From: a virus
Lineage: Duplodnaviria > Heunggongvirae > Uroviricota > Caudoviricetes
Virus record (IMG/VR): IMGVR_UViG_2695420859_000009
Strand: one strand, 5' to 3'
DNA length: 11,662 bases
Shown here: positions 4,074 through 6,872 of the stretch, piece after piece
How positions within the stretch are numbered: position 1 is the stretch's first letter
How the letters are laid out: every line of letters starts with the position of its first letter
Notes under the pieces: model-generated
The model's input: the letters and a program-made list of their open reading frames with translations, nothing else
Told to the model about the DNA's origin: nothing
Database searches by the model: none
Program-made: the position numbers and the translations under genes

Positions 4074-6872
4074 ATGTGGGGAAGTGAAAACAAACAAAAT
4101 CTGGACGTACTGGATCCTGTGCAGTTGGTGCGTATCGAAGCGGTACACCGGGGGTTCCTTTACCAGCATCTTTACGCTGTAGGCTGCTTACTTTTGGCGC
4201 AGAGGGCAGCTATGGACTCAGTAACTGTCGAGCTTGATGAGGATATTGAGCTGAAATCCAAACAGGAACGTCTCTACATTCAGGTTAAAACCCGTTCAAA
4301 ACCTATTATGCCCAACGATGTGTCGGGGGCTCTGGAGCGATTTGTAAAGCTCAGAAATGAGCATACTTCGGCAAACCGCGAAGGGGTGGCTTCTTTTGTG
4401 ATTATTGTAAACCAGGCGCCTGGACCGCTGCTTCAGAAGATGATTGACGATAAAAAGCTTCCTTCTGATGTTCTTATTGTCTGGCCCCAGTCGACAGCTG
4501 GACGTCACCCGGCACTTCCGCCCGCATGGAGTACTCTGGCTGATGCGGCCACATGGTGTATCGCAGAAGCAGAAAAGCTGAAATTTTCACTATTGTCCCC
4601 AGAATCCTTGATTTGGAAGTTAGCAGGATTGGTTCAGCTTGCCGCCACCGGAGGCGATACCAATGGACAACATACGTTTTTCACGGAAGAACTTACTGAA
4701 CTATTTGAACAGTTGATCGTTCAGCTACAGGACTTTCCTGCACCACCAGCACTGTACCGCCCACAGAACGAAGAACCTTCTCTCACATCTGGTGAGCGGA
4801 TCCGTATCCTTTGTGGACTCTCAGGTGCAGGCAAGACAGCTTGGGCCGCACAGGCCGCATTACACTCCACTGCACTTTGTGCTTATTACGACACCGGTGA
4901 TCTTCCCGGTCCAGCTCTGGCCAGTACGCTGGTGCGCGAGATGGCTGCTAGATTTACAGCCCGTGACCAAGACGGTTTGCGCAGGATTTTGCTCCCCGGT
5001 GCCAGTGGTTTTGAGGCTCTTAGGAGTTTTGATACCTACCTGAAAGAGCAGGGTACCACCTTGGTGCTGGTTCTGGATAACGCCCATCGTGTACCTGCGG
5101 AAAATCTACTGGATGTTCTGAATGCAACTACACATATTCGTTTTGTGCTGTTGTGCCAGCCTCACGAAAACGTTCGCGAACTGGAGGTCATGACGGGGCT
5201 ACAGCGCGAGGGCCTGCAGGGATGGAATCTCGATACGGTAGCTGTCGTTGTAAACGATATCGGAGGATTTGCCACCGCTATGGGATACGAGCAGCTACGG
5301 GCTTACACTGGTGGTCTTCCCCTGTATGTAGAGAGCGCCGCAAAAATCGCCGTTTCTGATTATGAGCGTAATGTCGATGCTCTGTGTGCTGAACTCCAGC
5401 AACAAACCCATACTGCGGAAACCGCCCAAGAAATTATTCTGTCACGTGTATTTCAGGGATTTGAATCACTACTTCAGAGCGCGCTGGCATTGTTCAGTCT
5501 CTCTGACGTAGGGCTGAGTCGCGAAGAGATTTCTACGCTCCTAATCAATTCGCTGAACATTTCACCAAGCAGTGCTGCTTCTTTAATTAGGAAAATGCGC
5601 GCTACTGGCACTATTGAAATTTATGGAAACCAGACCCTGAAGGTACATGATGCTGTCAGGGGGCTAGGACTGCAACATCTGGAACTGATGGATCAGGGTA
5701 TATCGAACAAAGCGCTACTAGCGCTGAAAGACCTTTTAGTTGAAAGTCTTCATAATACCCGCAATACAAAACGGTTATCGTTGTTGACTCAACTTTATAT
5801 TAAGCTCAATGATGTCACGACGTTGATCGAACTCTCAGGCCAAGAAATGTTTTATGAGATGGGCGTGACGGTCGACATTCTTGCAAGCTTGGAGCGTGCT
5901 GCAACATCGGACTTATTGGGACCTGTTCATAAATTCTGGGCATTGGATGGCCTTGTTTTCGTTGAGCTTAAAGACGGAATATCCGACCACATTGCTCAGA
6001 GGTTAAACATCATGGGAGCTTTACTTGCGGAGCACAAGTTCGGCTATCAAGAAGAGATGGCCTATGCAATGAAACGAATGTTATTTTCGGCAGAAAGCAA
6101 TGATGCACGAGAAGTTCAAAAGCTGGCACAGGAAGTCCGCCCCCAACTCCCAGATGAAGAACATAAACGCATCTTTGACTACAACCATGCCATTGCACTC
6201 TGGAGATTAAAAAAACTCAAGGATGCTGAAACATTAAGCTGTAATGTTATACAAGGGTACTATTCTTTATTTGGTATCACACCTGCTGATGTCATAGGAA
6301 AAAACGCCGACGCATTATGGAAAACTATTAATCATTCCGAAAATATGCAGGAACACTTTAAACATATGGCTGATGCTCTGGAGTTGCTGGCCAGAATTCG
6401 TGATGCGCAGGGAAAACTGTCACCATTACTGCGTATTCATTCGATGAAGTTCTACAATCTGGCCATGGCCCCGGAATCCATGGTCAGGGTGGGCCAAGAT
6501 CTGGCGGATGAGTTTGTTGCCATAAAGGATTACGACGGTGCCAAGGAAGTCATGGAGCAACATGTCCTGCCGGTTGTCAATGAGGCAGGTCTAGTACATC
6601 GACTGATTCAGGTTCGAAGCCAATACGCAGTCATATTAGCACTATCGGGTCAGCATAAAGCAGCTGATGTCGAAATGCAGCGCCTTGCTCCCTATATCGA
6701 AGGCCTCACAGGTGTACAGCGTCAAGAAATCCAAAATCAATCAAATTACATCGTACAGCTTGCCCATAAAGCAGCAAAGACTAAATTAACTGAAGTTTTT
6801 GGTGCGGTCGGCCGGAATGAACAATGCCCCTGTGGCTCGGGAATAAAGTACAAAAAATGTCACGGTGCCTGA
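4074..6872 (+). CDS. Large multidomain protein (932 aa): N-terminal PD-(D/E)xK-like nuclease-type region, STAND/NB-ARC-like P-loop NTPase, helical repeat region, C-terminal SEC-C zinc-binding motif; candidate single-gene antiphage (Avs-like) defence protein
   Basis: Track ORF with AGGAA SD. Walker A GLSGAGKT (residues 248-255, nt 4815..4838); Walker B LVLVLDN (D335 at nt 5076..5078); GLPL motif at residues 413-416 as in NB-ARC/STAND NTPases. N-terminal GFLYQ...[11 protein letters not shown]...IQVK resembles Cap4/Mrr-type nuclease signatures (from memory). Terminal [14 protein letters not shown] (residues 918-931, nt 6825..6866) matches the SEC-C motif. About 450 residues of the C-terminal half are predominantly helical by eye. 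The gene is flanked by AT-rich intergenic DNA. Confidence 0.85.
   Translation: [932 protein letters not shown]

Follow-up and report, generated by a model that had tools for sequence, protein, structure and literature searches.

A prophage-borne nuclease–STAND–TPR protein with a SEC-C tail: a candidate single-gene antiphage system of the Avs type

In the antiviral STAND (Avs) proteins SeAvs3 and SeAvs7, recognition of a phage protein by the TPR sensor is followed by assembly of a tetramer through the ATP-bound NTPases; the Cap4 domains then form an active DNase, and inactivation of Cap4 abolishes both defence and toxicity (PMC13581612). For Avs7, it is the binding of the phage major capsid protein that leads to ATP-dependent tetramerisation and DNA cleavage, with EF-Tu acting as a host cofactor (PMC13581612). 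Here we analyzed a gene located at positions 4074–6872 on the plus strand of an 11,662-nucleotide stretch of viral DNA (Caudoviricetes; IMG/VR record IMGVR_UViG_2695420859_000009), this whole stretch being referred to as the window. As in SeAvs7, a Cap4-type PD-(D/E)xK nuclease, a STAND NTPase and a TPR-like sensor are joined in a single polypeptide, which ends in a SEC-C metal-binding motif. Overall, we consider it likely that the gene, carried as cargo by a lambdoid prophage, encodes a stand-alone, NLR-like immune protein of the Avs type that works by the mechanism of the Cap4-bearing Avs proteins.

The gene is an intact open reading frame (ORF) with an ATG start and with its stop codon inside these coordinates. 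The deduced protein of 932 amino acids (aa) is 100% identical to RefSeq WP_000264572.1, which is annotated only as 'SEC-C metal-binding domain-containing protein'. An initial annotation, made from the letters of the window, had read this ORF as a nuclease-like, STAND NTPase, helical-repeat and SEC-C protein and, following Avs logic, as a candidate single-gene antiphage system. Each of the motifs that it named was recovered at the residues it gave, the layout proved right by Pfam, by an AlphaFold2 model and by Foldseek, and all computational checks (fold, conservation, context and census listing) agree with the candidate role.

Several features distinguish the protein from SeAvs7 and SeAvs3. 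SeAvs7 is longer, with TPR residues numbered beyond 1059, and has K292, D358 and H545 where the 932-aa protein has K254, D335 and H525. No sequence-level link between the two was found, and whereas Avs7 uses EF-Tu, the protein described here carries a SEC-C tail. SeAvs3 (PDB 8dgc) comprises 2028 residues and senses the large terminase. As no Avs model of PADLOC-DB v2 matches the protein, it does not belong to Avs1–5. The impression that it is shorter than known Avs proteins had to be given up, since EfAvs5 in the PDB has 833 residues and a length of 932 is not anomalous.

A near relative has already been listed in a systematic survey. Strain WP4-S18-ESBL-07 carries a gene with 99.4% DNA identity to that of the window, and its product, WP_021564393.1, is seed #193 (NTPase 227–435) of the 656 from which Lee et al. 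(Nature 2026) started their STAND census. The census seeds are known or predicted defence STANDs together with sequences found with defence effectors such as Cap4 (PMC13581612). In the same study 30 further sensor clusters were assayed, with Enterobacteriaceae preferred, and EcAvs19, EcAvs22, EcAvs23 and EcAvs24 were named among others (PMC13581612). Given that a near-identical allele is a census seed, the family is already on the lists of specialists. Among single-protein nuclease sensors of the Avs type, which are a known kind, it represents one more family, set apart by the PADLOC models from Avs1–5 though not from Avs6–24.

Domain anatomy and conservation

Structure prediction, profile searches and a neighbourhood analysis had been proposed as checks together with the initial annotation, and all three were run. 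The AlphaFold2 model, built from a 42-sequence alignment (mean predicted local distance difference test score, pLDDT, of 80), gave the domain boundaries collected in Table 1, with residues 541–909 being all-helical. In the Pfam search, Cap4, AAA_22 and SEC-C exceeded their curated thresholds. The protein has the Avs layout of an N-terminal effector, a STAND core and a C-terminal repeat sensor within one chain.

The STAND core is defined by sequence motifs as well as by fold. Walker A (GLSGAGKT) occupies residues 248–255 (nt 4815–4838), with K254 as its lysine, and Walker B (LVLVLDN) residues 330–336 (nt 5061–5081), with D335 as its aspartate. Pfam AAA_22 covers residues 239–364 (32.6 bits against a cut-off of 27), and AAA_16 matches too. 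The helical domain bears the GxP motif GGLPL, including P416, and in the winged-helix domain of the model a beta-hairpin (514–524) is followed by a helix that starts with the MHD-like V524-H525-D526. The Walker A and B motifs, the GxP helical domain, the winged-helix histidine and the likeness of the consecutive nucleotide-binding, helical and winged-helix domains to solved STAND structures all point to the same class.

A Foldseek search of the PDB placed first the STAND-TPR protein PH0952 (6mfv_A; E 3.7e-14, 734 columns, target-normalised template-modelling score 0.60), followed by plant NLR resistosomes (NRC2, NRC3 and ZAR1), EfAvs5, HamA and Cap4. MalT (8bob_D) and the NB-ARC domain of NRC1 are further fold matches of the nucleotide-binding domain, and SeAvs3 and LmuA are found among those of the protein. 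PH0952 of Pyrococcus horikoshii (6mfv) and MalT (8bob, 1hz4), the latter a transcription activator, share 12–14% identity with the protein and, unlike it, have neither a nuclease effector nor a SEC-C tail. A MalT-like regulator was rejected because a helix-turn-helix output domain is missing. Sequence and profile searches of the PDB matched the SEC-C tail alone and returned nothing for the rest of the protein.

The N-terminal domain is identified as a nuclease of the Cap4/DUF4297 type by profile, by fold and by its D...(E/Q)xK residues. It contains the motifs GFLYQ (27–31), ELDEDIELK (53–61) and IQVK (69–72), and D55/D57, Q70 and K72 are proposed as the catalytic residues. The PADLOC LmuA model matches residues 26–119, within the N-terminal domain only. 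Of the Cap4/Mrr-type nuclease suggested at first, the Cap4 half stands, as a Cap4/LmuA/HamA type, but the Mrr half does not.

Related nucleases are controlled in other ways: Cap4 of CBASS (cyclic oligonucleotide-based antiphage signalling system) is governed by a SAVED domain and cyclic oligonucleotides, LmuA by the SMC-like LmuB and HamA by the HamB helicase. Here the nuclease instead shares its chain with a STAND switch, and the window contains none of these partner genes. A CBASS Cap4 effector was rejected because no SAVED domain was found with Pfam and no cyclase is present among the ORFs of the window or the annotated neighbours. Lamassu (LmuA) and Hachiman (HamA) were likewise rejected, since neither LmuB nor HamB is adjacent, the neighbours being the Ren-like DUF977 gene and hok/sok. 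The protein was also not assigned to bNACHT, as PF05729 is absent from the Pfam families at E<=1 and the nearest folds are MalT, PH0952 and NB-ARC.

To place the protein in a family, an exhaustive HMMER search of 1.84 billion representative sequences was used. It yielded 735 clusters (50% identity) at E<=1e-3 and 287 at E<=1e-30, and with 735 matching clusters the existence of a gene family is far beyond chance. Nearly all matches align in one stretch, from about residue 10 to about residue 900–931, and their lengths are mostly around 890–960. The species-level genome matches extend over Gamma-, Beta- and Alphaproteobacteria, Sporomusa, Streptomyces, Acidobacteriota, Planctomycetota, Nitrospirales and Spirochaetia.

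Within this family the functional residues are strongly retained. D57, Q70, K72, K254, D335 and P416 are invariant in all 219 full-length members, down to about 29% identity, and the MHD-like H525 is kept in 214 of them. The invariance of the catalytic residues indicates that nuclease and NTPase are both under strict selection. Among distant members the sensor region shows 35–39% identity to the query, compared with 35–48% in the other domains, and this even conservation would fit one conserved ligand better than a fast-diversifying sensor.

Table 1. Features of the STAND gene, its product and its leader, with positions in the window
Feature	Position	Strand	Basis
Leader travelling with the gene	3893..4073	+	blastn match to the 92%-identical homologue (L100)
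Complete coding sequence, Cap4-STAND-TPR-SEC-C protein	4074..6872	+	ORF, RefSeq identity
Cap4/LmuA/HamA-type PD-(D/E)xK nuclease domain, alpha/beta, aa 20-215	4131..4718	+	Pfam, PADLOC, conservation, model
STAND nucleotide-binding domain, Rossmann-like, aa 240-385	4791..5228	+	Pfam AAA_22 and AAA_16, conservation, fold
Helical domain HD1, aa 386-447 (GGLPL 413-417), then winged-helix domain, aa 448-540 (VHD 524-526)	5229..5693	+	model, conservation
TPR-like alpha-helical repeat domain, aa 541-909, presumed ligand sensor	5694..6800	+	model
SEC-C (SecA-type) metal-binding motif, aa 914-931, low-confidence C-terminal tail after the last long helix	6813..6866	+	Pfam

A mobile cassette in a variable prophage slot

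Among 5426 complete E. coli genomes, 16 carry the gene, with at least 99.4% identity and always on the chromosome. In the two loci examined, the lambdoid prophage shows the order replisome-organiser gene, DUF977, STAND gene, hokD/sok and a DUF968-RusA-Q late-regulation block, the two prophages being integrated at different sites (tRNA-Ser/mtfA and rspB/ynfA). The replisome-organiser/DUF977 module is present in 1528 genomes, and in CFT073-type prophages the place of the STAND gene is taken by four small hypothetical ORFs. As the content of this position differs among related prophages, it can be described as a variable cargo slot.

The initial annotation had put the gene in a prophage accessory slot beside a Hok toxin, and both parts of this were confirmed. 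Directly downstream lies a hok/sok type I toxin–antitoxin module (6981–7305), with an Rfam sok match of 110 bits at 6981–7155 (+) and the hokD coding sequence at about 7150–7305; a terminator-like hairpin follows hokD at 7374–7391. Upstream, the DUF977 gene (3422–3830) is split into two overlapping ORFs, 3422–3697 and 3579–3830, both of which match PHROG 142, 'Ren-like exclusion protein'. Decay of the prophage has left the STAND gene intact. In RefSeq, the DUF977 gene of the matching genome is entered as a frameshifted pseudogene, and the prophage integrase is frameshifted too.

That the gene moves on its own is indicated by a 92%-identical homologue (L100; blastn) in an unrelated island, where it adjoins a P4-type integrase, DUF4365 and type I restriction-modification genes. 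This homologue shares with the window exactly positions 3893–6896, corresponding to a 181 bp leader and the gene with the 24 bp that follow it. Because the cassette boundary at 6896 precedes sok, we rejected the idea that the gene and hok/sok form a dependent two-gene unit. At the 5' cassette boundary, a perfect 6-3-6 palindrome (CCAGAC-CTA-GTCTGG) stands at 3892–3906 and is degenerate in the 92% homologue; it might represent a recombination boundary or an operator.

The suggestion that the gene has its own promoter was borne out in part. The leader moves with the gene and contains, by eye, the boxes of a candidate sigma-70 promoter (ATGACT at 3975–3980, a 19-nt spacer and TATAAT at 4000–4005, with TATATT in the 92% homologue), but a consensus promoter scan of 3831–4073 on the plus strand, with a spacer limit of 16–18 nt, called none. 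An AGGA ribosome-binding site is located at 4063–4066, 7 nt upstream of the start. Considering the leader as a whole, a promoter of its own appears plausible. Terminator prediction between the upstream gene and the STAND gene returned none, so that read-through from the early operon is also possible.

The STAND gene has been interrupted in some of its carriers. In one E. coli genome (NZ_OZ546984.1, 361511–365562) it is split by the IS3-family insertion sequence (IS) ISEc52, and truncated alleles of 194–530 aa are found inside large contigs of the gene's 90% cluster. Repeated inactivation would fit a costly defence gene. When 50,697 phage genomes were searched by megablast, the gene gave no match, and the tblastn hits were limited to a pair of metagenomic contigs without annotation, labelled 'Bacteriophage sp.' (39% and 34% identity). 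These searches indicate that it is not a common cargo of sequenced phages.

Two further observations concern other parts of the window. Positions 228–527 and 563–862, in a ydfC/ydfB-like region, form a 300-nt direct repeat with 97% identity and 335 bp from start to start. The two closest complete genomes span the whole window in 11,326–11,327 bp, about 335 bp fewer, in two pieces. The window seems to contain a tandem duplication that those two genomes do not share; otherwise, the repeat is an artefact of assembly. Three tRNA genes (in RefSeq Ile, Arg and Arg) follow the Q antiterminator gene, and an STnc100 small RNA was matched with 100.8 bits (10071–10320 and 11091–11263).

Contexts of homologues, proposed mechanism and competing readings

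For the neighbourhood analysis, the four closest ORFs, two per side, were taken from each of 33 diverse loci and surveyed qualitatively (132 proteins, without a matched control set). No neighbour family was found more than five times among the 132, and the commonest ones are defence families, namely GajA, GajB, LmuB, AriA-like, ABC-3C MC3, Mrr, SIR2_2, HerA, DUF4238 and AbiLi. Lamassu-like, type I restriction-modification, AbiH and Gabija genes are present among the neighbours across loci, and no partner gene is conserved. The lack of a conserved partner, together with the defence neighbours, supports a self-sufficient gene living in defence islands. In Vibrio cholerae, for example, the homologue is located between Gabija, with PIN_12 and AbiH farther upstream, and an AAA_13 protein, and the same stretch contains umuDC-like genes and an integrase. 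Homologues were also detected in 54 plasmid records, 21 of them conjugative, which include E. coli IncHI1B plasmids and Pseudomonas megaplasmids. The genomic context expected of an Avs gene, on mobile elements or in defence islands, was hence found in this qualitative survey, in agreement with the initial annotation.

Since the same three modules are present with conserved catalytic residues, we assign to the protein an Avs3/Avs7-type mechanism. At rest, with ADP bound, the protein would have its Cap4-type nuclease at the N-terminus held inactive by the TPR-like sensor together with the NTPase. Once a phage infects, the sensor (aa 541–909) would bind a protein that the phage makes, upon which the NTPase would swap ADP for ATP and drive oligomerisation. 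The assembled nuclease domains would then cut double-stranded DNA without sequence specificity, and this cutting would stop the phage and probably kill the cell (abortive infection). The domain anatomy, the residue conservation, the mobility as a single gene and the genomic context are observed here; protection against phage, the nature of the trigger, the state of oligomerisation and the choice of DNA as substrate are all features that we infer by analogy with the characterized relatives.

A number of points weigh against this reading as an Avs-type immune protein. The match to Pfam Cap4_nuclease (PF14130, residues 25–77) is marginal and short in span, at 27.1 bits against a cut-off of 26.2. 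None of the nine hits in PADLOC-DB v2 is to an Avs or any other full-length model, LmuA, DUF4297 and HamA matching in the N-terminal part only and models that bear SEC-C matching the tail, and NCBIfam and PHROGs offer no family over the body of the protein. Literature searches by accession and on SEC-C, NLR-like, Avs and prophage topics retrieved no experiment on the protein or a close homologue, and a place among the census seeds is evidence neither of a defence-associated score for the clade nor of an assay. The enrichment of defence genes near homologues is qualitative. Finally, if the target is a conserved phage protein, the prophage that carries the sensor would itself have to escape it by some means.

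Among the alternatives, the one that survives best, although we hold it to be unlikely, is that the protein acts in inter-element competition or exclusion and not against phages as such. The same Cap4-STAND-TPR machinery would then recognise a protein of incoming plasmids, integrative and conjugative elements (ICEs) or competing temperate phages, to the benefit of the carrying element more than of the host. The many types of carrier, from lambdoid prophages and large conjugative plasmids to metal-resistance (ICE-like) regions and integrase-flanked islands, are in line with such a role, as is the position in the prophage directly after the Ren-like exclusion gene and before the hok/sok stabilisation module. 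However, the solved and tested relatives of the same architecture respond to phage structural or replication proteins, and the recurrent neighbours are classical antiphage systems.

Less probable still is a component of a multi-gene system that needs a neighbour, such as Gabija, AbiH or hok/sok. In its favour are the homologues of 72–73% identity in Enterobacter pasteurii, Rahnella, Yersinia and Pantoea (L003, L011, L089 and L090–L093), where GajB and GajA are found in the same divergent orientation and at a fixed distance, at about 6510–9655 (-), and in these bacteria Gabija and the STAND gene seem to travel together as a unit. Similarly, the Pseudomonas-type homologue (55% identity) is followed by AbiH about 61 bp downstream on five separate contigs (L084–L088, from Pseudomonas and metagenomes) in metal-resistance (ICE-like) regions, and AbiH may be either a second defence gene that travels along or a partner specific to the lineage. 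The E. coli locus lacks AbiH. Against a dependent system, Gabija and AbiH are missing from the window as well as from the remaining E. coli loci, the 92% homologue has only positions 3893–6896 in common with the window, the Serratia ficaria homologue is an isolated insertion amid metabolic genes, and even the top neighbour family accounts for at most 5 of the 132 neighbours.

The least probable of the alternatives is that this STAND transduces signals for some regulatory or housekeeping purpose outside immunity, in the way of MalT or PH0952. It could draw on these two being the best structural matches of the NTPase and repeats and on a database name that refers to the SEC-C metal-binding domain alone, but it is at odds with an output domain that is not DNA-binding and is instead a nuclease with invariant catalytic residues, with the patchy presence in E. 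coli, with carriage by mobile elements and with the existence of IS-disrupted and truncated alleles.

The SEC-C tail and its possible role

The SEC-C motif at the end of the protein, already noticed in the initial annotation, is real: Pfam PF02810 matches residues 914–931 with 38.8 bits against a cut-off of 20.4, and the CxC...C[HC] motif is flanked by the GRN and SG..KYK residues. The tail equals the SecA zinc-domain peptide 1sx0 at 16 of 20 positions and aligns also to the SecA peptides 1ozb and 1tm6, and the pLDDT of the model falls toward this C-terminal end. The metal-binding domain of SecA is described as binding zinc or iron, SecB and ribosomes (bioRxiv 10.1101/613315). The C-terminal metal-binding domain of SecA, YecA and YchJ carry the same motif; here it is joined to an immune-type STAND protein, for which binding of metal, SecB or ribosomes is at most predicted.

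The motif is present in 170 of the 219 family members and missing from the remaining 49. By Fitch parsimony on a neighbour-joining tree, SEC-C is placed at the root with at least 36 state changes, and the tail-less members are scattered; some of these are probably frameshifts, P0110 being an example. A similar picture was obtained for species-level loci, in which 60 of 74 complete matches extend to the tail and 14, including all five Streptomyces loci, end at residues 893–900. The tail is, on this reconstruction, ancestral in the family and has often been lost.

SEC-C-like ends were also detected on the PADLOC models E2, E1-E2 and PDC-S12, which represent unrelated defence proteins, and on one PHROG of unknown function, which indicates that the motif recurs on defence-associated proteins. 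A literature search on SEC-C with STAND, defence or nuclease found no discussion of SEC-C on STAND defence proteins, and both SEC-C and zinc are absent from the text of the census paper (PMC13581612). The lactococcal protein Rugutis, the sole SEC-C defence protein found in the literature, was set aside as unrelated.

A role for the tail can be proposed tentatively, and we regard it as doubtful at present. The initial annotation had already raised, as a speculation, that SEC-C could tether the protein to the machinery of translation or secretion, and speculative it stays. It might dock the resting sensor to SecB or to the ribosome at the site of translation, where new, still monomeric phage proteins would be captured; in a variant of this idea, the metal site may render activation redox- or metal-sensitive. 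The likeness to 1sx0, the ancestral but lost tail, its absence from Streptomyces and the SEC-C ends on other defence models fit such docking and do not test it.

If docking were true, the protein would join Avs7, which uses EF-Tu, as the second Avs to repurpose machinery of its host for translation or secretion. The SEC-C tail is the one feature not described before; the set of SecA partners is well defined, and the natural tail-less relatives are built-in controls. Close homologues are present in E. coli, Salmonella, Klebsiella, Pseudomonas aeruginosa and Vibrio, and, if protective, the protein would be a compact (932 aa), prophage-carried pattern-recognition receptor with relevance to the host range of phage therapy in those pathogens. 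Its trigger, once found, would add one entry to the map of phage proteins sensed by bacterial STANDs.

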